DNA of 64,000 nt, from positions 1,107,213-1,171,212 of the forward strand of contig CBDBBP010000004.1 of NCBI GenBank assembly GCA_965202855.1, given 5' to 3'. The notes beneath the pieces are model-generated. The model was not told the DNA's origin, did no database searches, and saw only the letters and a list, made by a program, of their open reading frames with translations. Shown in pieces: positions 20,761 to 59,700 of this stretch (the stretch's first letter is position 1; each line of letters opens with the position of its first letter). Origin of the DNA: Arenicellales bacterium (GTDB lineage: Bacteria; Pseudomonadota; Gammaproteobacteria; Arenicellales; JAJDZL01). A program made the position numbers and the translations under genes.

Positions 20761-20992
20761 TTTAATGCGATTTTGAAATCCGAAACTTTAGGCAGCTATT
20801 GCTCTCGGTATAAAATTTGCAGTTTTTTCTTCCATAGCCAGCTGCACAATCACCCAAACAGTTCATTCTAGACTCAATTGATTCTTCCCCACTATATTAG
20901 ATTAGAGAATGTCTGCACAGAATCAGGGTAGTTTCAGCAACTGAAAAGTATTACATTGAGTCTGTAAGTTAAAACCGAAAAAAATTACAAAA

Positions 20993-33132: not shown

Positions 33133-33269
33133 ATGCTATGGGTTCGGTAGGGATTGTAACGTGATTGAATGATTCCCTTCGATTCTTTTTTAGTTTGGTT
33201 TCTAAGGAGAATTTTGGATTAAACTTGCTTGCTTTGCTTTGTTTTTTGAGCGAATTCAAAAGCTAGAAT

Positions 33270-45149: not shown

Positions 45150-45395
45150 ATGACCAAAAAAAAGAATATGGCAGCGTTGACTTACCATGAAATGCATACT
45201 GATTCTCCAGACGAGCGAGGATCATTCTGGCGTACTGTACTTGATATACTCAGCAGCGGTGGGGGCGTCAATCCCGATTTCGGTGAAATTCGATATCCGA
45301 AGAATGCACAAAAACAGGATTTAGAGCGAATCGGTCAGGATTTTTCTAGAACACTTAGTAAATTTGACTCTTCAAAATTACATCGAAACGGCTGA
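45150..45395 (+). CDS. hypothetical small protein next to the CRISPR array
   Basis: 81-aa ORF with an AGGAGA 9 nt upstream of the ATG. No motif I recognise. An adjacent +1-frame ORF stays open to 45528. Confidence 0.4.
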   Translation: MTKKKNMAALTYHEMHTDSPDERGSFWRTVLDILSSGGGVNPDFGEIRYPKNAQKQDLERIGQDFSRTLSKFDSSKLHRNG

Positions 45396-45540
45396 GCGCA
45401 ATAAAGCCACTTCTGAGAAAGAATTCACCGAGAAAGAATCCTCTAGATCCGAATCTACTGAGAAAAATTCTTCGACATTTCGTATCGGTTGGGTATTAGA
45501 AGTATTAGTTAATGACCCGAAAGAGACATGATTCCCTTCG

Positions 45541-45557
45541 GTTTAAATTGCTGAAAC
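45541..45557 (+). repeat. internally deleted CRISPR repeat remnant
   Basis: GTTTAAATTGCTGAAAC equals repeat nt 1-14 (2 substitutions) joined to the last 3 nt of the repeat. A 21-nt spacer-like segment follows, then the degenerate first full repeat. Confidence 0.6.
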
Positions 45558-45578
45558 TTATGCTCCCACGCGAAATAA

Positions 45579-48500
45579 GTTTCAGTTACTGAGTAATCAG
45601 GTATATTGGTGAAACTTTTCGAGCCGCGAGCGAACTTGGAATTCGGACAATGTTTCAGTTGCTGAGTAGTCAGGTATATTGGTGAAACTTGAAGGCTATG
45701 AGGGAGAACGACACGCATTCACTGTTTCAGTTGCTGAGTAGTCAGGTATATTGGTGAAACCCCATTACGCTGCCCATCAGCCAAAACCAGATCATGTTTC
45801 AGTTGCTGAGTAGTCAGGTATATTGGTGAAACTTCAAGCGTTACTTGAATTGACGGCTGTCGTAAGTTTCAGTTGCTGAGTAGTCAGGTATATTGGTGAA
45901 ACAAAAGCAAACAACCGGATCAACAAGTCTTATGATTGTTTCAGTTGCTGAGTAGTCAGGTATATTGGTGAAACTGCCCTCCGATCTTGCGTTGCGTCAC
46001 TGCTTCCTGTTTCAGTTGCTGAGTAGTCAGGTATATTGGTGAAACTCAAGTTGATCGTGCGGGTCCGTCAGGAAGTCATTTGTTTCAGTTGCTGAGTAGT
46101 CAGGTATATTGGTGAAACCGCGAAAGGTTCAATCCGTTCCGGCACGTCTCGAGAGTTTCAGTTGCTGAGTAGTCAGGTATATTGGTGAAACTGCCCTCCG
46201 ATCTTGCGTTGCGTCACTGCTTCCTGTTTCAGTTGCTGAGTAGTCAGGTATATTGGTGAAACGTGTCAGACTTATGCGACCGTGATAGAGGCTTAGTTTC
46301 AGTTGCTGAGTAGTCAGGTATATTGGTGAAACCGAAAAAACTGGATGTAAACCTTGTCCATACAGGTTTCAGTTGCTGAGTAGTCAGGTATATTGGTGAA
46401 ACATCAATCCCAGTCGGAACCAAACAAATGTGATACCTGTTTCAGTTGCTGAGTAGTCAGGTATATTGGTGAAACAGCAAAACGATTTGCAGTTGAGCCG
46501 CAAAACGTTCTGTTTCAGTTGCTGAGTAGTCAGGTATATTGGTGAAACTCTGCAAAACTCCAGGTTGCGACAATCATCGGACGTTTCAGTTGCTGAGTAG
46601 TCAGGTATATTGGTGAAACACAGTTGTTCAACGAACACGTAGATATTTTCAAAGAGTTTCAGTTGCTGAGTAGTCAGGTATATTGGTGAAACGCAGATCC
46701 ACGGGATTATCAAGAGTTCGAACTACGAGTTTCAGTTGCTGAGTAGTCAGGTATATTGGTGAAACTGAAGGATGCGTAGCATAGACGCTTCGGTCATTAG
46801 GTTTCAGTTGCTGAGTAGTCAGGTATATTGGTGAAACTTGGCAATCCTCCATTCTCCGACCGAGCAATCACAGGTTTCAGTTGCTGAGTAGTCAGGTATA
46901 TTGGTGAAACTCCGATATCGGCGACCACCTAAACCACATGAAACAGTTTCAGTTGCTGAGTAGTCAGGTATATTGGTGAAACCATGAAGAGGGTAAAACC
47001 TACCGCTTGAGCAAACAGTTTCAGTTGCTGAGTAGTCAGGTATATTGGTGAAACTTGAACCACACACCGAAGCGAGGAACGAATCTTAGTTTCAGTTGCT
47101 GAGTAGTCAGGTATATTGGTGAAACCGAATGGTGCGAGGTGTCTAACTATAGGTATGCGCGTTTCAGTTGCTGAGTAGTCAGGTATATTGGTGAAACTAC
47201 ACGGTGTAGTGCAACCGCTTCGTTCATCCAGTGTTTCAGTTGCTGAGTAGTCAGGTATATTGGTGAAACCTTGATAAATCCCGCTGACGGCTGCGAGTAT
47301 GATCAGTTTCAGTTGCTGAGTAGTCAGGTATATTGGTGAAACCCAAAAAGAGTATTACAAGGTTGACAGTTTAGAGTGTTTCAGTTGCTGAGTAGTCAGG
47401 TATATTGGTGAAACTCAAGCTCAGATGAAACATGAGATTCCTGAGATCAGTTTCAGTTGCTGAGTAGTCAGGTATATTGGTGAAACGGCTCAGATAATAG
47501 TCGGACGTCTGGATCTTAAGGGTTTCAGTTGCTGAGTAGTCAGGTATATTGGTGAAACTGGTTGATCCATTAGATTATGAGTCAGGTGTGATAGTTTCAG
47601 TTGCTGAGTAGTCAGGTATATTGGTGAAACCAAAAGACAACGGTATCCTTGAAGTCATACCCGGCAGTTTCAGTTGCTGAGTAGTCAGGTATATTGGTGA
47701 AACTATTTAACGAATGGCAAATTAGAGAAATATACCAAGTTTCAGTTGCTGAGTAGTCAGGTATATTGGTGAAACGGTGAAATTTTGTCTATCTCAATTC
47801 CGTCTGGCATGTTTCAGTTGCTGAGTAGTCAGGTATATTGGTGAAACCGCACTGTGCCGACATACGGGTGAACTTCCCCTGAGTTTCAGTTGCTGAGTAG
47901 TCAGGTATATTGGTGAAACGATGAATTCGTTGAATAGCGCCAGCGATAAAGAGTGTTTCAGTTGCTGAGTAGTCAGGTATATTGGTGAAACCCAGAGAGT
48001 CGTCAACCGTGTCGTCAGATCTCAGAATGTTTCAGTTGCTGAGTAGTCAGGTATATTGGTGAAACGATTTGAGTGCTATAAGTCATGTGTGCCCTTAGAA
48101 TGTTTCAGTTGCTGAGTAGTCAGGTATATTGGTGAAACGCTGCCATGCTGACCGTCGACGGCGCAGAGGGAGTGGTTTCAGTTGCTGAGTAGTCAGGTAT
48201 ATTGGTGAAACGGTGTTGCGGATGACAATGTTGCAGTATTTCATATGTTTCAGTTGCTGAGTAGTCAGGTATATTGGTGAAACTGCTCAGGTCTTCAAAC
48301 ATGGCTAGGTTGTTATTGGTTTCAGTTGCTGAGTAGTCAGGTATATTGGTGAAACTGGATCGAGACACGTTTGAGCGAATTGTTCTGGAATCGTTTCAGT
48401 TGCTGAGTAGTCAGGTATATTGGTGAAACCGGGAAGGGAGAGCTCATCGAGGCCATGGCCAGGATGTTTCAGTTGCTGAGTAGTCAGGTATATTGGTGAA

Positions 48501-48865
48501 ACCGTTAAATTCTTTAAAATCCCTTTTAGTGTTGAAGTTTCAGTTGCTGAGTAGTCAGGTATATTGGTGAAACTTTGATTATTGGTTCGTCTTCGCGGGA
48601 GAGTGGGCGTTTCAGTTGCTGAGTAGTCAGGTATATTGGTGAAACTAGGATTCGTTCTTGCAGTTCAAACATTTAGCCTCCGAGTTTCAGTTGCTGAGTA
48701 GTCAGGTATATTGGTGAAACGAATTGCTAGGGGTGGAGGAAGCTTGCGACACGTAGTTTCAGTTGCTGAGTAGTCAGGTATATTGGTGAAACGTTGAACA
48801 GGTATATGATAGCGGTGATTTTGGGTATGTTTCAGTTGCTGAGTAGTCAGGTATATTGGTGAAAC
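45579..48865 (+). CRISPR. CRISPR array, 46 repeats / 45 spacers, type II-B
   Basis: The 37-nt repeat is GTTTCAGTTGCTGAGTAGTCAGGTATATTGGTGAAAC. I located 46 copies by hand. The first copy (45579-45615) carries G10A and G18A, and all the others appear identical. Spacers are 33-38 nt. The strand is assigned from the tracrRNA anti-repeat and from the 5' GTTTCAGTTGCTGA shared with the F. novicida crRNA repeat. Confidence 0.98.
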
Positions 48866-48973
48866 TCCATTCGATTTCTGTTTAAGAACAGTAATATATG
48901 GAAAATATGAGGGATAATATTTTCGAAAATGACCTTTCTGTACGAAAATCGACATTTTTTGCGAAAATATCTC

Positions 48974-49002
48974 TTGTGTAAAAGGAATGATTTCAATAAA
49001 AT
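48974..49002 (+). promoter_or_regulatory. sigma-70-type promoter of the tracrRNA
   Basis: -35 TTGTGT (48974-48979), a 17-nt spacer, and -10 TAAAAT (48997-49002). This predicts a start about 7 nt downstream, exactly at the anti-repeat. Confidence 0.6.
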
Positions 49003-49008
49003 TAAGAA

Positions 49009-49134
49009 AACCAATATAGTTGACTACTGATGCACTGTAATCATAAAAAAGTATTTTGATCGGACCTCTGCCTAGCACGTCTGAAATTGATTAGTAAAAT
49101 AGGATATCCACCCTTGGTTGGATATCCTATTTTT
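49009..49134 (+). ncRNA. tracrRNA
   Basis: The anti-repeat AACCAATATAGTTGACTACTGATGCACTG pairs with repeat nt 5-32 (perfect blocks of 9 bp and 8 bp). Downstream, GTAATCATAAAAAAGTATTTTGATCGGACCTCTGCCTAGCACGTCTGAAATTG is near-colinear with the F. novicida tracrRNA/sgRNA scaffold as I recall it. It ends in a 12-bp hairpin plus a T-run. Confidence 0.88.
49099..49134. terminator. bidirectional intrinsic terminator shared by tracrRNA and the convergent cas operon
   Basis: ATAGGATATCCA (49099-49110) / TGGATATCCTAT (49119-49130) with an 8-nt loop. AAAA lies upstream and TTTT downstream. It sits 17 nt past the cas4 stop. Confidence 0.8.
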
Positions 49135-49150
49135 ATGCTTCTCATCTACT

Positions 49151-49759
49151 TTAAAGTCTGTCATTACAAAAGTTAATGTATTCGCAGGAGCAACATTGAA
49201 AGACCGATGCATTGGAGTCAGGTTTCACACCGAGAGTTAGCATTTGTCGTATTGCATCGGCAATTTGTAAGACTTTTTGCCTTCTGTCTGTACTGATTTC
49301 AATGGTGTGCAACATTTTGCCTGCTCCAACAAGAAATCCATACTGGCTTGGTTTCGAAAAATGACTTTCTAACAGCATCGCATATGCAGTCAACTGCATA
49401 ATATCTCCGCGTTTTTTATTGCTCGCCGATATTTTGAACTCGATTGGATAAACGGCTTCATTAGTTTCAATAGCCATGTCAACAATACCGTGAATGCCAT
49501 AAAGATTATCCCGTATAGCGAGTTTGTAGAATTTCTCGCCATCTTTTAATTTAAACCGAGATAGATTGCGGCGCTGCCACAATTTTTCTTCCAACTGATG
49601 AAAATATTCGCCCTGTTTCACCCATAGTGGATAATTAGCAACAATATCTGTTAGTTCAATATAGTAAACAACTCTTGGGCAATAACACCACTGCCGCAAT
49701 AGGTTCGCAGGCACACTAAATGACTTCTGTTTCATTCCAATCTTTAAAGTCTTTAGCAC
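49151..49759 (-). CDS. cas4: CRISPR-associated exonuclease Cas4
   Basis: 202 aa with PD-(D/E)xK core (VDMAIE...PIEFK) and the 1+3 cysteine Fe-S pattern (WCYCPR near the N-terminus; CCSCEYINFC at the C-terminus). Confidence 0.9.
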   Translation of the reverse strand: MLKTLKIGMKQKSFSVPANLLRQWCYCPRVVYYIELTDIVANYPLWVKQGEYFHQLEEKLWQRRNLSRFKLKDGEKFYKLAIRDNLYGIHGIVDMAIETNEAVYPIEFKISASNKKRGDIMQLTAYAMLLESHFSKPSQYGFLVGAGKMLHTIEISTDRRQKVLQIADAIRQMLTLGVKPDSNASVFQCCSCEYINFCNDRL

Positions 49760-50039
49760 TGTATCCGATGAAAAAACTTTTCCCTCTACCGTTAAAATTA
49801 GTTCGAGTAATGAAAACTTTGTCAGTACTCCTAAAGTTAGTCTTCAGGAACCGTTTGATGGCCTCTGTTTCAGCGGTTGTTAAATATCCCCAAAACACGG
49901 ATTTCTGTACGGGTTTTAATCCCAATTTGCTCAGTTCATTGAAGATTTCAGTGCGCAGTTTATTGTTCGAAATATCGTAACTAACAAGATATTCTTGTCG
50001 GAGTGGATGCGTCATTCGATAAGACCGATTCTCTACCAC
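49716..50039 (-). CDS. cas2: CRISPR-associated endoribonuclease Cas2
   Basis: 107 aa. LVSYDISNNKLRTEIFNELSKLGLKPVQKSVFWGYL is the Cas2 ferredoxin-fold N-terminus. Located between cas1 and cas4. Confidence 0.88.
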   Translation of the reverse strand: MVENRSYRMTHPLRQEYLVSYDISNNKLRTEIFNELSKLGLKPVQKSVFWGYLTTAETEAIKRFLKTNFRSTDKVFITRTNFNGRGKSFFIGYSAKDFKDWNETEVI

Positions 50040-50992
50040 TTGAAAAGATATGGCCTGTAAGTTTTCTCTCCGTAAAAATGCCCGCAGAGTCTATAAATCT
50101 GCCTTTGAATAATATGTTCCAGTTTCAGCTTTCTTTTTCTATATAGATAACTTCTCGCACAAGTTCGTTGAACTTCAGATATTAGTGCCTTTTTTAGTTC
50201 CACATCTAAATCTTGCTTCTTTTCAATTCTAGAGCGCAATTTGATAACGACTCTGTCTACTACCCAAGAACGATATTCTTCCATCAGATCCAATACCAAT
50301 GCCATTTTGCCTGGACGTCTGCCATGTAGAATGCCGAGATAAGGTTCCAAGCCAGCATTGATGATCGAACTTAGAATGTAGGCACTTAGCATCGCGTATC
50401 CAAAGTTCAGCATGACATTATTGAGTTCTTGACTTCCGCGCCCTTCGCGTCTGCAGAACGAAGATGAAAATAAGCCGGCATTGCGCAATCCTCCAAAATA
50501 AGCACTCGCACTAGCACCTTCGTACCCTAAAAGGGTTTGAAAGTGACTTGTCTTATTAGCTTGGTTGGCGTAATCCAGTAGTTTTACAGCAGTTGACTGT
50601 AATTCCTCATTCTGATGATATTTACCCAGATGTTTAATTACTGCACGCTGATTCTTTATCTTCGCAACTACGATTTTTTTTGCGAGTGGCAGGGTGTCGC
50701 CTTGACAATATTTCATTTGCGCCATGCGAACGGCAACCACTCCGTGTTGTGATTGCCCTAGAATTGCTGAATGGGCTACACCACGATAATCTAAGAAGAA
50801 TAACTTAATGCCCCGAACACTAAACGCCTCAATTAAATCACTCGAAATACTAATTCCACGTTTTGCTATCGATACGGTACACAGACGATTAAGAGGATAA
50901 TATTTGGTGGCATTACCTCGCTGTTTGACCGCTAAACGATGACGCTCTAATCCAAGAAAAGTGCCGTAATCACATATTACTAGGTGCTTCAC
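50033..50992 (-). CDS. cas1: CRISPR-associated endonuclease Cas1
   Basis: 319 aa. The N-terminal beta domain begins LVICDYGTFLGLERHRLAV. The C-terminal helical domain carries conserved acidic/His residues (LGYEGASASAYF, LGILHGRRPGKMALVLDLMEEYR). Confidence 0.92.
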   Translation of the reverse strand: MKHLVICDYGTFLGLERHRLAVKQRGNATKYYPLNRLCTVSIAKRGISISSDLIEAFSVRGIKLFFLDYRGVAHSAILGQSQHGVVAVRMAQMKYCQGDTLPLAKKIVVAKIKNQRAVIKHLGKYHQNEELQSTAVKLLDYANQANKTSHFQTLLGYEGASASAYFGGLRNAGLFSSSFCRREGRGSQELNNVMLNFGYAMLSAYILSSIINAGLEPYLGILHGRRPGKMALVLDLMEEYRSWVVDRVVIKLRSRIEKKQDLDVELKKALISEVQRTCARSYLYRKRKLKLEHIIQRQIYRLCGHFYGEKTYRPYLFKW

Positions 50993-51103: not shown

Positions 51104-54100
51104 CTACGTTTCGTTCGAATCGCCGAAATAATACTGCTGTAAAATCTTACTCAAGGAACTCTTTATTTCGTTTGAAAAACCGTCTGCTTTGTACTCCATT
51201 AATTCAAACTCATTTGAATTCAAATTAGTTAGAAATTTCTCTTTCAATTTTTGAAAACTATCTTTTCTAGGCTTAAGTAAAGGGTCTTGAAATATCTCTT
51301 CAATTTTTTCTCTGGCCACCTGCTGATCGAATTTAAAGCGGATTCGAGGGCGAGTATTGTCTTCAATTCGGTATTCCAGTTCAGTCACACCATTTCTTTT
51401 CAAAGATTCGTTAAGTTCCACTCTATGCCATTTTTCCGTGTCAATCAATTTAACGGTATCACTTCGTTCAGAATTGTATTTTTGTCTCTTCAAAAAAAAT
51501 GTGTTCTGAGATTTGGCTGACTCGGAGAGTAACTTACCAATCTTACCTTCACTGTTGCAAACCGGGATAAACGCTTTGGCACCTAGTTTTTGAGAATTCG
51601 AATCATTGACGATCTGAAAAATTGGACTGTTGTTCCAAGATTTTCTCTTCAGCAACCTGTGCCCTTGATTCGATTTTATGGGCAATGAATAAACTTGACG
51701 AAATTTTTTGTGAGGGTGTTGGTGTCTATACCTGAAAAATCCTCTCAAAAATTCTCCATTTTCTAATTCTGATGACTTCTCCCATGCGTCAATGAGCATT
51801 TTCCATTCATTTCTCACTGGCAATATGAGATTCCCTTGATCTTTTGATAACTTAAAATTTTGCCCATTGTTCAAAATTTTCTTCGCATCATCCAATGTTG
51901 TGATTTGTTTTTTCTCAGTTCGATAAGAAAGCTTTTTTCTAAGAAAATTCATCTCATTGCTATAAACTTGACAACCTTTAGCCGTATTGTAGTTTTCTAT
52001 GTAATGAGAGTGGATCATTCGTGTATTCAATGAGATACAGAAATAGTCATTTTTTGATTTAAATCCAACTTGGATTAGCTGAGACCTTAGTGTCTGGAAA
52101 GTATCTTCTTCATTTAGTGCCAATAATTTTTTTTTGCGATTGAACTGAAGGGCAAAATTCAATTTTTCTCGATTTGGTTTGTAGTCTTTGAGTGGAAAAC
52201 TGTTCTTCCAGTCAAATCCAATACGAACTTCCGATAATTTTCGGTGTACAAGGATCGGCAGATAATGTTCGGCGTACATTCCATCGCGATGAATGGAGCG
52301 ATGTTTGAAATACTGTCGGTCAGGTTTGCGACGTTCCAAGGAAACCTCTCGGAAATTTTTTGGTTCAACTTGAATAGCCTTGAAGAGACTGTCATCATAG
52401 ACTCGAAAATGTGCGTTTTCCATTTGGCTCACTAATTGATCAACACGAGACCAAATTCCCGTTTTTCCCAATTCAAGCCTCAAACTTCCACTGCCGCGAT
52501 GTGCATCTGCCACCATGCAGAATGCCACTTGCGCATCTAACAGATGAGAATACGGTTTCTGAGGCGAATTATCACTTTTACTGTAGCTGGCTAGATCTGG
52601 GCGATAATAGGTAACCAAATCATGACGCAAATTGTGTATTCCATCGCCCCGGGAATTGTCCCGCGCTTCCACTCCAAAATAGTCAAATGAAAGTAAGTGA
52701 TGTTTGTCAATTCTTTTTGCTTTCTTATAAAGTGCGTTGGCTAATACTTCCGCAAAGTATCGTTGGGTTCCATTAACGAGCGATTTGGTTCGATGATTGA
52801 TAGTGCTAATAACGAGCTCTCGAAGGGGGTCACCTGCTTTGAGGAATAGTGCGTGTCGAAATGCTTTTCGTTGTTCTTTCGTCAAATTTATAAAATTGAA
52901 ATAGCGTCCAAATTTGAACTGCCCTCCTTGACCGTCGCCAATTGTATCTTTTATCCGTTTCTCTATTCGCGAGTCGTCAGCGGTTCCGAAAACGTGACGT
53001 TTGTAATGGGGATGCAAATCTGAAAGGGAAAATTCTGAATCTCCTTTATTTGCACGATTGTCTTGTTCACTGGTAAAAATCAGATTTGCTTCATCATTAA
53101 GCGTACCCCATTTAGGATGCGCTCTGGGAATAATATGATCGATATCCCCCGTGTTCCCCAATGTTACTCCTGAATATGGCGAAATTTGGGTTGATTTTCT
53201 GACTCTATTTCTTTTTGAATGTTGTATCTTCTTCAGGTCACTTGAATTAAATTCTCTTTTTCTTTTGTTATACTCCCTCGCGTCCAAATAGGGCCTTTTA
53301 AGCTCTAGCAAATTTGGTTCAAACTGAAACCGATTAGATTCTGTAATTATTGGTATCCGAACTTCTATACCCGATGATAAATTCTTCTCGATTTTTAACC
53401 ATTTATCTTTTGCGATAGCTGCGCCTAAAATTCGAGCTAGACGCATCACTGCACCATCAATCAGTCTGGTCGGAATCGCAGGCAAGCGTTGGGCTTTTAC
53501 ACTTTTTTCGAACATTTGCATTCTTTGGGCGTTATCCAAACTACAAACAGAGCAAGTTTTTGCATTTCCACGGCGCTCCTTGAATGCTATGTTGTTAATC
53601 TGAGCAAGCAGAAATACAGCACTTGCTGGATGGTCTTGAAGACTTTGATTCCATTTCTCTGATTGTGATTCATCATACAGTCGACTTCCTATTTCTCCAC
53701 ATACTTCAAGACACTTTTTTACAAGTTTGAATAATTCTTCATGAGAATTAGACTCACCCCAAACTTCAAGAATTTTATCCTTCAGCTGCCCACGGAATTT
53801 TTTTTGTTCCTTAGCTGCATCTGCGCTATTAGTCTTCAAGCCCTTGATATTTTTCAACCAAATTGTCAGCTCGGTATGGTCATTAGATTTTGTTCGTTTT
53901 TTAAGTTGCTTCGGGGATATCTGAAATAAGCCAGCTATATCACTGATCAGCTGATAACGCTTTTGTCTTGGCTTATGGTTGCAATAGGTGAGCAGGTGAT
54001 CACGGTCTTCAAAACGTCCAGTTTTTTTGAATCCACGACCTTTTATTAAGCGATACTCGGGATGAATGAATATCCTACCATCGCGCGCTTTCTGCCGATT

Positions 54101-56047
54101 TTTGTAATAGTTGCAGATTAAATGCATGAAACTCCCTTGAGCAAAGACACCGCTGTCATCGTAGTTCGGCCGTGTTTTGAAATTATCAGGCAATCTGCTG
54201 CAGTTCATCGCTTTTGCTAATTTTTCTCTCGTTTTCTCACGGTCTTTCCGACTAGACTGTTGTTGGCGAATTTTTTTCGTATGACTGAAAATTTCATTTA
54301 GCTTCAGTACGTCTTCGTCTTTCACCCGGTCTAATAGAAACTGCAATATTCGAGCGTCCAAATCCTTAGCAGTTCTGCACCCTGAATCTCTCTGAGGCGA
54401 ATTGGTTAACTTGCCACCAAAATAAGCAGTGCCTTTACTGCTCTTCAACTCTTCCATTTCCTTCTTGTAATTTCCTAGATATCCTTTTACTTCCGGCAGG
54501 CGCAACAGTTCTTTCAGCCATATTCTCCAGTCTCTGTAATCGTTATCCAAGAATTCTGTGTTGAGTACCAAGCTCTGACATTTCGGCGGACGCCGATTGT
54601 TTTTATCTTGGTATGGAGGAATAGTAAATAAAGGAGATTGCTCAAGCCAAAATTCAACAACGCTACCTTGATGAGCTTTGCATATTGAGCGAAGTTTTTG
54701 GTAGTCATATTCTGCGCCTGGTGCTTTGTCCAAGTCTTTTTCCGGATTTACGCGCCACTCCCGAAGTATCCAGTGTTCAAACTGATCTTTCAAGCGACTC
54801 CTGTCCCAATAATCACCCTGTTTATGTCTTTTTTCGTTGAAATATTTTCTGAGAGGTTTCAGTTCCAAATTACTCAAGTGACCGATGAGATTTGCCAGTG
54901 ACTGAGGAGTGAGAGAAGTACCATTTTGGATTCTAAATTCACCGGAATGCAGTCTCGTGCAGAATGAATTCAAATAGCCATGTTGGTGGTTCACGCATTC
55001 TAAGGTATCTTTAATCTCTTGAAAATATTTGCTTCTATGACGAGCACCCGTACTTAACTCCTGAATTACCGTATGCAAAGCGAATGCGAAGTGATGGATA
55101 TGAGTTCTTAACCAATTCTTCCGCGCTTGAAGAATTCTTTTATTTACTCTATTGGAATTATTCGATGTTTCTATCGGGTCGAACGAGGCTTTTTCGAGCT
55201 TAAACTTTTCGGCATCAAAGTTCCATATTGAAGCGTTCAATTCAGCATTTTCTTTTTCCAAGTCGGTGGGTAGACTGCTAAGAATTTCACTGGCAACCGA
55301 AGAGCTCTTCTGATTGAGTTTTTCAGCTAAGTCGACTGTTCTTCCTTCGTCTCGAATACAGTGTAACCCAACAATGCCCATATCATCCCAAGCATCAAGA
55401 ATCCATTCATTTAATCTAAACTTGTCTTGAGTTCGTTTGTTTACCTCTATCTGACTCCCTCCAATCCTTGTTTTACAACTTTCCTTCAGTAATTTTGTAC
55501 GATTAATGATTAGAAGATTGCGTTTAATCTTTTTCGGTTTTTCAATAACAGACTTGAATATTTCCTTGATTTCAGATCGACCATGCTGCTTCCATTCGGA
55601 CATCTTTTCATCTAAATTACAGGTGTCTCGTATTTCACCAAATTGATTCTGGACCGCTTCTGGAAGTTCCCTAAATGCAGGCTCTGGAAAGTACTTTAAG
55701 GCTTCTGCATCATATTCTTCGGACAGATAACTAAACCCTCTGCGATTGAACAGAAAACCGATAGTCTGCTGAGTCTTTACGTCCCATTCCAAACCAAACT
55801 CTTGGCACCAGATCAGTCGAAACAAACGCTTTACCATTTGCCTGCGTTTGTATCCTCGCCGTTGATGACGTCTGGCAGTTCTTTCGGGCATCATTAACGT
55901 AAATGCGTTTTTCTCCAACTGATACACTTTTCCTTCTTTCTCAATTTCTCCTAGAGAACTTCCAGCTTGATAATGAGCGAAGTACACTCCAGTGCTTTTC
56001 GAACCAAGATCTATGGAAATAGGACTAATTACTAATCGTTTCGGCAT
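51104..56047 (-). CDS. cas9: type II-B CRISPR-associated endonuclease Cas9 (1647 aa, FnCas9-like)
   Basis: RuvC-I ISIDLGSKSTGVYF; Arg-rich bridge helix RTARRHQRRGYKRRQMVKRLFRLIW; RuvC-II IPIITESNRFQFEP; HNH DIDHIIPRAHPKWGTLNDEANLIFTSEQDNRANKG; RuvC-III SHLLDAQVAFCMVADAH. Long colinear blocks match F. novicida Cas9 (e.g. LELKPLRKYFN, TIPPYQDKNNRRPPKCQSL, LTYCNHKPRQKRYQL, AQRLPAIPTR). Confidence 0.97.
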   Translation of the reverse strand: MPKRLVISPISIDLGSKSTGVYFAHYQAGSSLGEIEKEGKVYQLEKNAFTLMMPERTARRHQRRGYKRRQMVKRLFRLIWCQEFGLEWDVKTQQTIGFLFNRRGFSYLSEEYDAEALKYFPEPAFRELPEAVQNQFGEIRDTCNLDEKMSEWKQHGRSEIKEIFKSVIEKPKKIKRNLLIINRTKLLKESCKTRIGGSQIEVNKRTQDKFRLNEWILDAWDDMGIVGLHCIRDEGRTVDLAEKLNQKSSSVASEILSSLPTDLEKENAELNASIWNFDAEKFKLEKASFDPIETSNNSNRVNKRILQARKNWLRTHIHHFAFALHTVIQELSTGARHRSKYFQEIKDTLECVNHQHGYLNSFCTRLHSGEFRIQNGTSLTPQSLANLIGHLSNLELKPLRKYFNEKRHKQGDYWDRSRLKDQFEHWILREWRVNPEKDLDKAPGAEYDYQKLRSICKAHQGSVVEFWLEQSPLFTIPPYQDKNNRRPPKCQSLVLNTEFLDNDYRDWRIWLKELLRLPEVKGYLGNYKKEMEELKSSKGTAYFGGKLTNSPQRDSGCRTAKDLDARILQFLLDRVKDEDVLKLNEIFSHTKKIRQQQSSRKDREKTREKLAKAMNCSRLPDNFKTRPNYDDSGVFAQGSFMHLICNYYKNRQKARDGRIFIHPEYRLIKGRGFKKTGRFEDRDHLLTYCNHKPRQKRYQLISDIAGLFQISPKQLKKRTKSNDHTELTIWLKNIKGLKTNSADAAKEQKKFRGQLKDKILEVWGESNSHEELFKLVKKCLEVCGEIGSRLYDESQSEKWNQSLQDHPASAVFLLAQINNIAFKERRGNAKTCSVCSLDNAQRMQMFEKSVKAQRLPAIPTRLIDGAVMRLARILGAAIAKDKWLKIEKNLSSGIEVRIPIITESNRFQFEPNLLELKRPYLDAREYNKRKREFNSSDLKKIQHSKRNRVRKSTQISPYSGVTLGNTGDIDHIIPRAHPKWGTLNDEANLIFTSEQDNRANKGDSEFSLSDLHPHYKRHVFGTADDSRIEKRIKDTIGDGQGGQFKFGRYFNFINLTKEQRKAFRHALFLKAGDPLRELVISTINHRTKSLVNGTQRYFAEVLANALYKKAKRIDKHHLLSFDYFGVEARDNSRGDGIHNLRHDLVTYYRPDLASYSKSDNSPQKPYSHLLDAQVAFCMVADAHRGSGSLRLELGKTGIWSRVDQLVSQMENAHFRVYDDSLFKAIQVEPKNFREVSLERRKPDRQYFKHRSIHRDGMYAEHYLPILVHRKLSEVRIGFDWKNSFPLKDYKPNREKLNFALQFNRKKKLLALNEEDTFQTLRSQLIQVGFKSKNDYFCISLNTRMIHSHYIENYNTAKGCQVYSNEMNFLRKKLSYRTEKKQITTLDDAKKILNNGQNFKLSKDQGNLILPVRNEWKMLIDAWEKSSELENGEFLRGFFRYRHQHPHKKFRQVYSLPIKSNQGHRLLKRKSWNNSPIFQIVNDSNSQKLGAKAFIPVCNSEGKIGKLLSESAKSQNTFFLKRQKYNSERSDTVKLIDTEKWHRVELNESLKRNGVTELEYRIEDNTRPRIRFKFDQQVAREKIEEIFQDPLLKPRKDSFQKLKEKFLTNLNSNEFELMEYKADGFSNEIKSSLSKILQQYYFGDSNET

Positions 56048-56730
56048 GAGAGTTCTGTCTCTTAATGTGAGGAATGCAATTATTCACTCGCATTCCACGT
56101 TTGAAGTTTTTTGTGAAGATGGTAATAATTATATAAATTCAAGCACATCGCTATACTCAACTCTGTTATCAGGACGAGACCATTCGTAAATTCGGTTGCT
56201 CGTACTTGAATTCTGGAAATGCACTTGATCGGGACTGACATAAAATGCATACGTCTACAATTCGTAGTGAAAACGCTACAGTCACTTTTTAAATCAGGAA
56301 TCTCAGTCAATAGCACTATCATCGCGTAAGATCCGGTACTGAATCCGATTTACATGTTGATTTCCAGTTAAATACTCACAAGAATGAGAAAGTTGGCTCG
56401 GCATAACAGAAAAGTTTTCAATACCGCTTTAAGCCAACCGCAGCTAAACTCAATTATCTTGCCGGTATCGAGTAACACTAATAACGCTGTGAGCAACACA
56501 GACTTGATTTTAGAAGATATTGGAACACTATGTTTCCAAGTGTTAGCGTAACACGTCAATATAAGACGGATAATTTGCAATTGGTTGTTTTACAGAGGCA
56601 CCTATTCCCTTGTGCCATTGTCTAATTCGAAAATTTAGGAATTCCTAGCGCAGTAATTCACACATGCATGCCAAGTGCTGCGCTCTCAAATAAGTACGTT
56701 GAACGCAGTTCCTGCTGCACTTAACGTCGA

Positions 56731-59700
56731 TTAGCTTTCTTTTGTTGCTTTCAATTCGGTCAACAGATCTTTTGCATCAACATTGTCACCCACTGCGACC
56801 AAGATAGATTCTACGGTTGCAGCAACAGCAGTACGAATGGCAGTTTCCATCTTCATCGCCTCAATTGTCAACAGCACATCACCCGCTTGAACTTGCTGAC
56901 CGACACTGACACTGACAGAAGAAATCATGCCCGGCATTGGAGATATGACATGATCTGGATTTTCTGGATCCCCTTGAGGACGTTTCTCAATTTTGAGTGA
57001 AAATTTTCGATTGGGAACCTTAGCTGTTCGCGGCTGCCCGTTCAATTCGAAAAACATCTGCACATTTCCGTCTGCGTCGGTCTCACCTACAGCCAGACTC
57101 TGTATCACTAAAGTCTTGCCCAACTCCAAGTCCACCGAAATTTGCTGATCTGATTTCATGCCGTAGAAAAACACAGGCGTCGGCAGGATATGCACCGGTC
57201 CATATTCTTCACGATGGGACATATAGTCAGCGAAAACCGCGGGATACATCAAATGAGACTGAAACTCCTCGTCAGTGATTTTTCGCCCTACGCGGGTATT
57301 GGCGTTGTCACGCATCGCGGCTAAATCCGCCGGTGGTAAATTTTCACCCGGGCGGTTGGTCATAGGTTTTTCACCCTGAAGCACTTTTTTCTGTAGCTTT
57401 GAGGGAAATCCACCTGGAGGCTGACCAAGTTCTCCAGCAAAAAATGACTTCACTGAATCCGGGAATGCCACTTCCTTATCTGGATTTTGAATATCCTCAG
57501 CGCTAACCCCCGAACTGACCATCGATAAAGCCATATCACCGATCATCTTGGAAGTTGGAGTCACTTTGATCACATCACCAAACATTTCATTCACAACTGC
57601 ATAGGCTTCTGCCACCTCGGGCCAGCGATTTTGCAATCCCATCGCACGAGCTTGTTCTTTCAGATTGGTAAATTGACCTCCGGGCATCTCGTGCAAATAA
57701 ACCTCAGATGCACCAAACCGGACGTCACTTTCAAATGCTGCATAGTGTCGCCGCACAGCTTCCCAATAACCTGAAAAAGCCATGACCTGATCAGAATTTA
57801 TGCCGGTATCGTATCCTGTGCCCTGGAGTGCTTTGACAACCGATCCTAAATTGGGCTGAGAGGTGATTCCAGATACCGAATCCATCGCCAGATCAATTGC
57901 GTCAGCACCGGATTCGACGGCTGCAATGACACTAGACGCTGCGATGCCGCTGGTGTCATGAGTATGAAAATGCAATGGGAGTCCAGTCTCATCCTTCAGC
58001 GCCTGCACTAAAGTTCTTGCACTTTTCGGTGTGAGCAGTCCCGCCATATCCTTAATGCACAGAATATGTACACCTGCGTCTGCCAAATCACGTGCCATTT
58101 TGATGTAGTAATCCAGCGTGTATTTCTTACGCGCAGAATTATGGATGTCGCCGGTATAGCAAATCGCACCTTCAAGCAGTTTCCCAGCCTCCAAGACTGC
58201 ATCCATCGCCACGCGCATGTTGTCCACCCAGTTCAGGCAATCAAATACCCGAAATAGATCGATGCCTGATTCTGCGGCTTGCAAAACGAAACCCCGAACT
58301 ACATTGTCAGGATAATTCTTGTAGCCTACTCCATTTGCTCCGCGCAATAACATCTGCAGCAGGATGTTCGGAACCCGGCGACGCAGTTCTTCTAATCTTT
58401 GCCAAGGGCATTCCTTCAAAAACCTCATGGCTACATCAAAGGTCGCGCCACCCCAACATTCCAAGCTGAAGAGGTTTGGTAAATTTCGTGAATAGGATTC
58501 CGCTGCGTAAATTAGGTCATAAGTACGAAATCGAGTCGCTAACAAGGATTGGTGGGCATCTCGAAAAGTGGTATCCGTTACCAAAGCCCGCTTTTGCTGC
58601 AGCATCCACTGAGAAAAACGCTCTGGGCCTAGTGCATCCAAAACTTGTCGAGTCCCGGTTGGTTGATAGTCGACTGCAAATTCTGGAACGACAGCTTTTA
58701 ATGTGGTTCCAGGATGTGGCCGATCCTTTACTTCCGGATTTCCATTTACCGTAATGTCCGCAATGTAGCGCAGAAGGCGTGTTGCCCGGTCTCGTCGCTG
58801 CGGAATGTGCAGTAATTCAGGAGTTTCATCGATAAACCGTGTGGTGTACGAACCGTCAAGAAAGGTCTTGTGCTGTATCAGATTTTCCAAGAAAACAAGA
58901 TTCGTCGCAATTCCGCGAATTCTGAACTCACGAAGAGCGCGATGCATTCTCCGAACAGATTCTTCCGGTGTTTGCGCCCACGCTGTAACTTTTTCCAGAA
59001 GACTGTCGTAGAATCGCGTGATCACGGCTCCCGAATACGCAGTTCCGCCATCGAGTCGAATTCCAAAACCAGCCGCACCTCGATATGCAGATATACGCCC
59101 ATAGTCAGGCAGAAAATTTTCGCGTGGATTTTCTGTTGTCAATCGACATTGAAGCGCATATCCATTAATTCCTATTTCATGCTGATGAGGCACGCCAGAA
59201 CTTGCAATATCGCCGATTGCCCCTCCTTGAGCGAGTCGGATCTGCGCCTTTACAACATCAATACCGGTAATCTCCTCTGTGACCGTGTGCTCGACCTGAA
59301 TTCGAGGATTAACTTCAATGAAATAAAACTCCCCAGTATCGTCATCGAGTAAAAATTCTGCAGTGCCTGCATTGGTATAACCCACCGAACGAGCGAGGCG
59401 GAGCGCTGCGCTACATAGTGCGTTTCGCTGCTGGTTGGACAGGAAAAGCGCCGGTGCTCGCTCAATGATTTTTTGATTCCGACGCTGAATGGAGCAGTCT
59501 CGTTCAAATAGATGAATTATGTTTCCATGCAAATCGCCGAGCAGCTGAACTTCAACATGCCGCGCACGGCGTATCAGTTTTTCCAGATAAACCTCGGTAT
59601 TGCCAAAGGCAGCCAGGGTCTCTCTGCGACCGATTTCAACTGTTTCTTCCAGCTGGCTCGCATCGTCAATCACACGCATGCCTCTTCCGCCACCACCCCA

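Follow-up and report, generated by a model that had tools for sequence, protein, structure and literature searches.

The described elements closest to the one analyzed here come from type II CRISPR systems. In Francisella novicida, the small CRISPR-Cas-associated RNA (scaRNA) is a guide-repeat mimic located upstream of the array, with the trans-activating CRISPR RNA (tracrRNA) downstream (PMC6199352; bioRxiv 10.64898/2026.06.01.729453). Canonical targeting by the F. novicida Cas9 (FnCas9) forms a 20-bp R-loop, and scaRNA represses because its match spans only 11 bp (PMC12231574). In type II-C systems, new spacers are added at the last repeat, and the oldest repeat is the first one; mutations build up in it, and it is the source of an extraneous CRISPR RNA (crRNA), against which repeat mutations, guide hairpins or upstream terminators act (PMC12080349). 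Here we analyzed a window of 64,000 nucleotides (nt) from the genome of an Arenicellales bacterium (contig CBDBBP010000004.1, positions 1,107,213 to 1,171,212; all coordinates below count from the first letter of the window), in which an array assigned to type II-B begins with an aberrant unit at 45541–45615. A first-pass annotation had read this unit as a scaRNA-like regulator, with plain array decay as the fallback; decay proved to be better supported than regulation. We conclude, with a probability of roughly two in three, that the unit is the decayed, oldest end of the array and sits in the position of an extraneous crRNA.

The unit is made up of three parts on the + strand. A repeat remnant (GTTTAAATTGCTGAAAC, 45541–45557), which retains repeat positions 1–14 (with C5A and G7A) and 35–37 on either side of a 20-nt internal deletion bounded by two TGA triplets, is followed by a 21-nt relic (TTATGCTCCCACGCGAAATAA, 45558–45578) and by the first full repeat in crRNA sense (GTTTCAGTTACTGAGTAATCAGGTATATTGGTGAAAC, 45579–45615), which carries G10A and G18A relative to the consensus. 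The remaining array (45616–48865, + strand) comprises 45 identical 37-nt repeats and 45 spacers of 33–38 nt, that is, 45 of the 46 array repeats are identical to the 37-nt consensus (GTTTCAGTTGCTGAGTAGTCAGGTATATTGGTGAAAC) and the first alone differs. The earlier description of a repeat remnant, a 21-nt piece shorter than the real spacers and the only degenerate full repeat at the array edge therefore holds in both sequence and coordinates. For the first 14 nt of the repeat with at most two mismatches, 0.86 matches are expected per 64-kb window on both strands, and our own arithmetic from this figure gives p ~4e-4 for a same-strand match within 60 nt of the array. Since the remnant shares the strand of the array and lies 38 nt ahead of it, it is not a chance match, and it is probably the former terminal "extra" repeat. 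The 21-nt relic is most simply read as a spacer shortened by a putative deletion of about 14 nt. Reading 45541–45576 instead as one complete scrambled repeat is less parsimonious, the likeness to the repeat being confined to the termini. The genome carries one array, and the relic has no second copy within the 64-kb window; a candidate second array or second copy of the unit on contig C2 (a 9-nt seed followed by AGTTTCAG) turned out to be a chance match within an ABC-transporter gene.

Beyond the downstream end of the array lie a tracrRNA gene at about 49007–49134 (+ strand; anti-repeat at 49011–49042, Francisella-like 3′ scaffold and terminator hairpin) and, all on the − strand, cas4 (49151–49759; TIGR00372, E 2.5e-26), cas2 (49716–50039; TIGR01573, E 2.7e-07), cas1 (50033–50992; TIGR00287, E 1.7e-59) and a type II-B (Csx12-like) cas9 encoding 1647 aa (51104–56047; PF21069, Csx12-type Cas9 helical lobe, E 3e-114). 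The 1647-aa protein aligns over its full length with the F. novicida Cas9 structures PDB 9ehf and 5b2o (1169 bits) and is an FnCas9 orthologue. The Rfam family FtrA (RF02747), which is the Francisella tracrRNA, matched 49016–49128 on the + strand with 39.2 bits (E 0.0078), below its gathering score. With a Csx12-type Cas9, cas1, cas2 and cas4 and a tracrRNA that carries an anti-repeat, the locus is assigned to type II-B. Transcription of the crRNAs, each spacer followed by its repeat, is predicted on the + strand from 45.5 kb toward the tracrRNA and cas genes, opposite to the cas operon; the array of F. novicida was found experimentally to be read opposite to its cas operon as well (PMC3737331). 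The side on which two imperfect protospacers of the array carry their adjacent motif agrees with this orientation. In crRNA sense, the unit occupies the upstream end of the array, well away from tracrRNA and cas.

To this locus (G000) we compared ten further II-B loci found by Cas9 searches, nine from the same order and one (G495) from elsewhere in the class; the 11 loci are kin and not independent samples. All 11 share the layout of array, conserved flank, tracrRNA and cas4, and the tracrRNA is conserved in every one. The flank beside the last perfect repeat in our window (48866–49006, + strand) is AT-rich and leader-like, is conserved in the relatives, holds the tracrRNA promoter and contains two motifs, TTCGAAA (about +56, counted from the repeat) and TTTGCGAA (about +97). 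Within the 150 nt beside the last repeat, about 40 alignment columns are identical in at least 9 of the 11 loci, and no conserved column exists among them in the 150 nt at the far array end. In the ten Arenicellales loci counted, the motif TTCG[AC]AA (TGCGAAA in G161) keeps a distance of 55–58 nt to the repeat. By our own count, TTTGCGAA lies about 16 nt farther from the anti-repeat in G000 and G009 than in the others with its distance to the repeat unchanged, and because of this constancy the motif seems anchored to the repeat and not only to the tracrRNA promoter. From the flank, and by analogy with II-C, we infer that II-B spacers enter on the tracrRNA side beside the leader-like flank, which would make the repeat at 45579 the oldest of the array.

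Decay of the end repeat in these loci is found on the opposite side. The tracr-proximal (last) repeat is perfect in 11 of 11 loci, whereas the far-end repeat is mutated or truncated in seven: it carries two changes in G000, three in G009, two in G011, three in G138 and five in G495, an internally deleted repeat precedes the far end in G000 and G136, and the far end of G161 is fused or truncated. Only G001, G127, G133 and G137 have an intact far-end repeat. Loss of this kind is also visible inside the array of G138, where a 19-nt spacer stands with a repeat reduced to its last 6 nt. The far end of G136 reads GTTTCAATTGCTGGAAGC, which is the repeat of that genome with positions 15–33 deleted, directly after a run of about 23 C; a spacer of normal length (36 nt) and a perfect repeat come next. 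Conservation of the unit in relatives, which the first-pass annotation had named as a check, was not borne out: neither the 21-mer nor an equivalent conserved unit occurs in the ten related loci, and only the tendency to decay recurs. Arrays of different species among these relatives have no spacers in common.

The same comparison bears on the opposite polarity, in which the 45.5-kb end would be the acquisition end, the remnant and relic would stem from a faulty recent integration or from a leader, and the mutated repeat would be the newest. Most CRISPR types do take up spacers at the transcription-upstream end, and II-B polarity is not experimentally established (PMC13187072). However, the 11 loci show no conservation in the flank at the 45.5-kb end, whereas the other flank is conserved and its motifs keep a constant distance to the repeat, mutated repeats occur at the end of the 45.5-kb type in those seven loci and never at the other, and a mutated leader-proximal repeat would be copied into later repeats, which is not seen. 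We regard this polarity as very unlikely.

As for the activity of the unit, the predicted duplex with the tracrRNA anti-repeat (49011–49042) has −33.3 kcal/mol for the + strand consensus repeat, −23.7 kcal/mol for the first repeat and −3.1 kcal/mol for the truncated remnant. G10A and G18A both fall on positions paired with the anti-repeat and together cost about 10 kcal/mol. The first repeat (45579–45615) is thus still predicted to pair with the tracrRNA, but the earlier label "tracr-competent" misleads, as it is the least competent of the 46. The description of the remnant as lacking its tracr-pairing center is right insofar as its predicted pairing is nearly gone; it nevertheless retains the 5′ part of the repeat, with which the tracrRNA builds the Cas9-proximal lower stem. 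Consensus scans found neither a sigma-70-like promoter within about 650 nt upstream of the unit nor a terminator-like site for it. What the unit does contain is a hairpin at 45551–45585 (+ strand), an 11-bp perfect inverted repeat (45551–45561/45575–45585) around a 13-nt loop that grows to 14 pairs when G-U pairs are counted, with a predicted energy of −16.5 kcal/mol and z = −3.65 (0 of 200 shuffles were as stable). Its arms combine sequence from the remnant (its 3′ end), the relic (both ends) and the first repeat (its first 7 nt). The inverted termini of the repeat account for seven of the 11 pairs, and the relic supplies the other four (TTAT/ATAA). When folded, the hairpin is predicted to hide the ends of the guide along with the segment of the repeat from which the Cas9-proximal stem is formed.

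These features could also be read as a selected silencer, in which the deletion in the extra repeat, the two substitutions and the hairpin would be kept to stop a useless end RNA from soaking up tracrRNA and Cas9. In II-B they would then do what is done in II-A by the leader-repeat hairpin, and in II-C by repeat mutations and guide hairpins. All three act in the direction expected of a silencer, given the three duplex energies and the stability of the hairpin, and in G136 the deleted end repeat before a normal spacer removes exactly the extra repeat and would spare the real crRNA. Strong upstream pairing of the first repeat is found in G000, in G138 (matched by none of 28 internal units) and in G137 (matched by 1 of 36), and in no other locus, and mechanisms of this kind are documented for II-A, II-C and VI-B and open for II-B (PMC12080349, PMC13187072). 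Against this, the first repeat shows next to no upstream pairing in G009, G011, G001 and G161, 10 of 45 internal units in G000 pair upstream as strongly as the first repeat, and 4 of the 11 loci (G001, G127, G133 and G137) have a perfect first repeat without a remnant; a leader-repeat hairpin as a general II-B feature was discarded as inconsistent across loci. Neutral decay of the oldest repeat, moreover, predicts the same mutations. Maintenance by selection as a silencer is accordingly an unlikely account of the unit.

Arg1556 and Arg1585 of FnCas9, which read the GG of the protospacer adjacent motif (PAM), are both conserved in the 1647-aa Cas9, and two imperfect protospacers have CGG and GGG on their 3′ side in + sense; for these two reasons NGG served as the working PAM. 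PAM-proximal seeds of the 21-mer were searched on both strands of the whole genome, that of a 4.2-Mb gammaproteobacterium. No seed of at least 12 nt was found with any PAM, and two 11-nt seeds were found against about two expected, neither with NGG beside it; the best NGG-adjacent seed is 9 nt and the best with any PAM 11 nt. Among NGG-adjacent controls, the 45 real spacers gave mostly 8–11 nt (outliers 13 and 14) and 60 shuffles of the 21-mer gave 7–13 nt; the 9-nt seed equals the median of both. The PAM-adjacent partial target anticipated in the genome was thus no better than chance. Neither the region upstream of cas9 (56000–56800) nor that of the tracrRNA promoter (48860–49200) holds a seed of 7 nt or more, which excludes a scaRNA of the cas9-autoregulating type. 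In viral contigs, phage genomes and plasmids the 21-mer has no match, and array protospacers are absent from phages, plasmids and viral contigs, the viral contigs not having been scanned with the individual neighboring spacers. The 20 nt upstream of the truncated remnant, considered as an alternative guide, lack an NGG-adjacent seed in the genome.

The end guides of four relatives, put to the same kind of target test, yielded one match of 11 nt with CGG, in G495 (G495:C1:961503–961516). There, the 11 nt preceding the degenerate first repeat recur beside CGG on the coding strand of a LysR-type regulator gene. The complementarity ends at 11 nt, and about 0.05 such matches are expected per genome; as a real target of the end guide the match was set aside, being compatible with chance.

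These results bear on the proposal that the guide and degenerate repeat, joined to tracrRNA, steer Cas9 to repress a gene, or cas9 itself, without cutting. The layout and position of guide and degenerate repeat, on the array side away from tracrRNA, do match those of F. novicida, as first claimed, and the likeness extends to the subtype and to an orthologous Cas9 and tracrRNA (PMC6199352; bioRxiv 10.64898/2026.06.01.729453). The first repeat keeps a predicted pairing with the tracrRNA, and the REC3 clamp, which sets repression apart from cleavage, has been reported as conserved across II-B Cas9 proteins (PMC12231574), of which the Cas9 here is a full-length FnCas9 orthologue. What the unit lacks, compared with F. 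novicida scaRNA, is a PAM-adjacent partial (~11 bp) endogenous target, a promoter and terminator of its own detectable in the scans, and conservation in relatives, the guide sequence included; it adjoins the array with the spacing of a spacer, and the one match from the four relatives adds no target. Nor is its guide short in the relevant sense. Non-cleaving action of scaRNA follows from partial (11-bp) complementarity and not from guide length, and the earlier description of 21 nt as a short guide fails against the 20-bp canonical R-loop: the guide here has its full 21 nt and is not truncated by the transcription start. The Cas9-regulating scaRNAs and tracr-L (bioRxiv 10.64898/2026.06.01.729453) resemble the unit as solitary guide-repeat elements in a type II locus, but they repress the cas9 promoter, and the guide here matches neither the cas9 nor the tracrRNA promoter. 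We consider a scaRNA-like regulator very unlikely, and no sign of co-option is seen in the unit of this genome.

Decay of the oldest array end, the reading we prefer, would have proceeded by loss of the center of the terminal repeat, which left the remnant, by shortening of the spacer to 21 nt and by two mutations in the oldest surviving repeat. If transcription reads in from upstream, the relic and the mutated repeat would form one more crRNA with a full-length guide of 21 nt, to be regarded as an extraneous or fossil crRNA without a known target and not as a dedicated scaRNA. Its output would be damped in three ways, by the G-to-A changes that break pairs with the tracrRNA, by the lost center of the neighboring repeat and by the 14-pair hairpin, in which both ends of the guide and the first part of the repeat are tied up. 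The process would be array decay, possibly with selection to silence the end RNA.

Several points weigh against this account. Expression and processing of the unit are predictions, and according to the literature on type II-B it is still to be determined where spacers are acquired, where transcription takes place and how extraneous crRNA is handled (PMC13187072). The tracrRNA promoter within the conserved flank could explain part of the flank conservation. NGG is itself deduced, and targets under another PAM, or in DNA outside the collections searched, are possible. The unusual stability of the hairpin and the near-identical deletion in the end repeat of G136, a distant relative, hint at something beyond neutral decay. 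Finally, exact scans of a metagenome collection for strain-level relatives, with the mutated and with the consensus repeat, both came back empty.

The unit agrees with the II-C extraneous crRNA (PMC12080349) in that an extra repeat comes first in crRNA sense, opposite the acquisition end, that mutations weaken its pairing with the tracrRNA and that a hairpin involves the guide region; it differs in belonging to II-B and in that one more repeat, internally deleted, and a spacer of reduced length stand in front. Degenerate repeats at the trailer end of arrays are alike in the mutated repeat opposite a conserved leader, in truncated repeats and short spacers and in recurring without sequence conservation. 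The decayed end here, unlike those, is transcription-upstream, so that a guide can still be made from the relic. The F. novicida scaRNA may best be seen as a co-opted version of such an array end. Somewhat against the odds, we further propose that II-B arrays are built like II-C arrays, with spacers added beside the leader on the tracrRNA side and crRNAs read from the far, oldest end, such that the oldest repeat always yields an extraneous crRNA, silenced in these marine gammaproteobacteria and co-opted as scaRNA in Francisella. The routes of silencing in this scheme would be repeat mutation, internal deletion of the extra repeat (G000, G136) and the hairpin, which we advance jointly with it and just as tentatively. 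If true, this scheme would answer a II-B question listed as open in the 2026 literature and give scaRNA an evolutionary origin.

Taken alone, the unit would be an ordinary decayed array end, and the scaRNA lead can be closed for this genome. Its wider interest lies in the agreement of the 11 loci, in which the tracrRNA side has a perfect repeat and a conserved flank in fixed register, decay falls on the far side and the crRNA sense runs from the far side. This is comparative evidence on the growth end of II-B arrays and on the origin of extraneous crRNA, and it also suggests that the Francisella scaRNA began as an array-end relic. The loci come from uncultured marine bacteria and encode compact, intact FnCas9-like systems, which makes reconstitution possible.

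Several observations were made on the array itself. Spacer 3 (45761–45795) matches its own genome at C2:291243–291272 over 29 nt, with a 2-nt insertion (GA) 4 nt from the PAM-proximal end and 4 more matching nt beyond the insertion; the genomic protospacer is followed by CGG, and a phage-integrase gene (PF00589) lies about 150 bp away. Spacer 3 has the appearance of a self-targeting spacer that was directed at an integrated element and lost its function through an indel in the seed; its protospacer also supports an NGG PAM. Of the 36 positions of spacer 1 (45616–45651), 31 match a genome of the same genus (G004:C1:269478–269510), where GGG follows on the 3′ side; this second, imperfect protospacer likewise agrees with NGG. 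The spacers at 45975–46008 and 46192–46225 (spacers 6 and 9) are identical; duplicate spacers also occur in G001 (7/8 and 20/21, adjacent), G133 (11/12, adjacent) and G138 (13/16, apart). Repeat positions 24–29 (e.g. 45675–45680) form a −10-like hexamer, which is TATATT, TATACT or TATGAT across the 11 loci. The hexamer and a G two bases upstream are kept in all repeat consensuses, and adjacent positions vary. Such a hexamer would place transcript starts near the first base of the spacer, and promoters may lie inside the repeats as in type II-C; the hexamer is also part of the pairing with the tracrRNA.

Two short sequences in the window recall the remnant or its surroundings. The 13 nt before it (ATGATTCCCTTCG, 45528–45540) recur exactly at 33169–33181, 12 kb away, in a convergent intergenic region, with ATT and a T-run after them; chance would give about 0.1 matches of this kind in the whole genome. 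An orphan TTTTCAGTTGCTGAAAC at 20931–20947 (− strand, intergenic, 24.6 kb from the array) is one base off a repeat with the internal deletion of the remnant and forms a palindrome with 7-bp arms (GTTTCAG and CTGAAAC) around TTG. Our own arithmetic gives about 0.03 matches of this type (at most one mismatch) genome-wide. The orphan may be chance, a relic or a candidate binding site; the 20 nt upstream of it, tried as a guide, have no target.

An 81-aa open reading frame (ORF; 45150–45395) without a Pfam match abuts the array. Homology between the small ORFs preceding this array and that of G009, suspected by eye, was dropped after an empty BLASTP search; the DNA of the 81-aa ORF itself has matches of about 70% identity at several sites in same-genus genomes, three of them in G009. 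Among the relatives, the array of G136 carries a 1658-bp insertion between repeats 2 and 3, and cas9 is interrupted by one TAG in G011, split into two frames in G001 and interrupted by one TGA in G495. In G011, cas9 and the array repeats lie on the same (+) strand, the reverse of the arrangement in G000.

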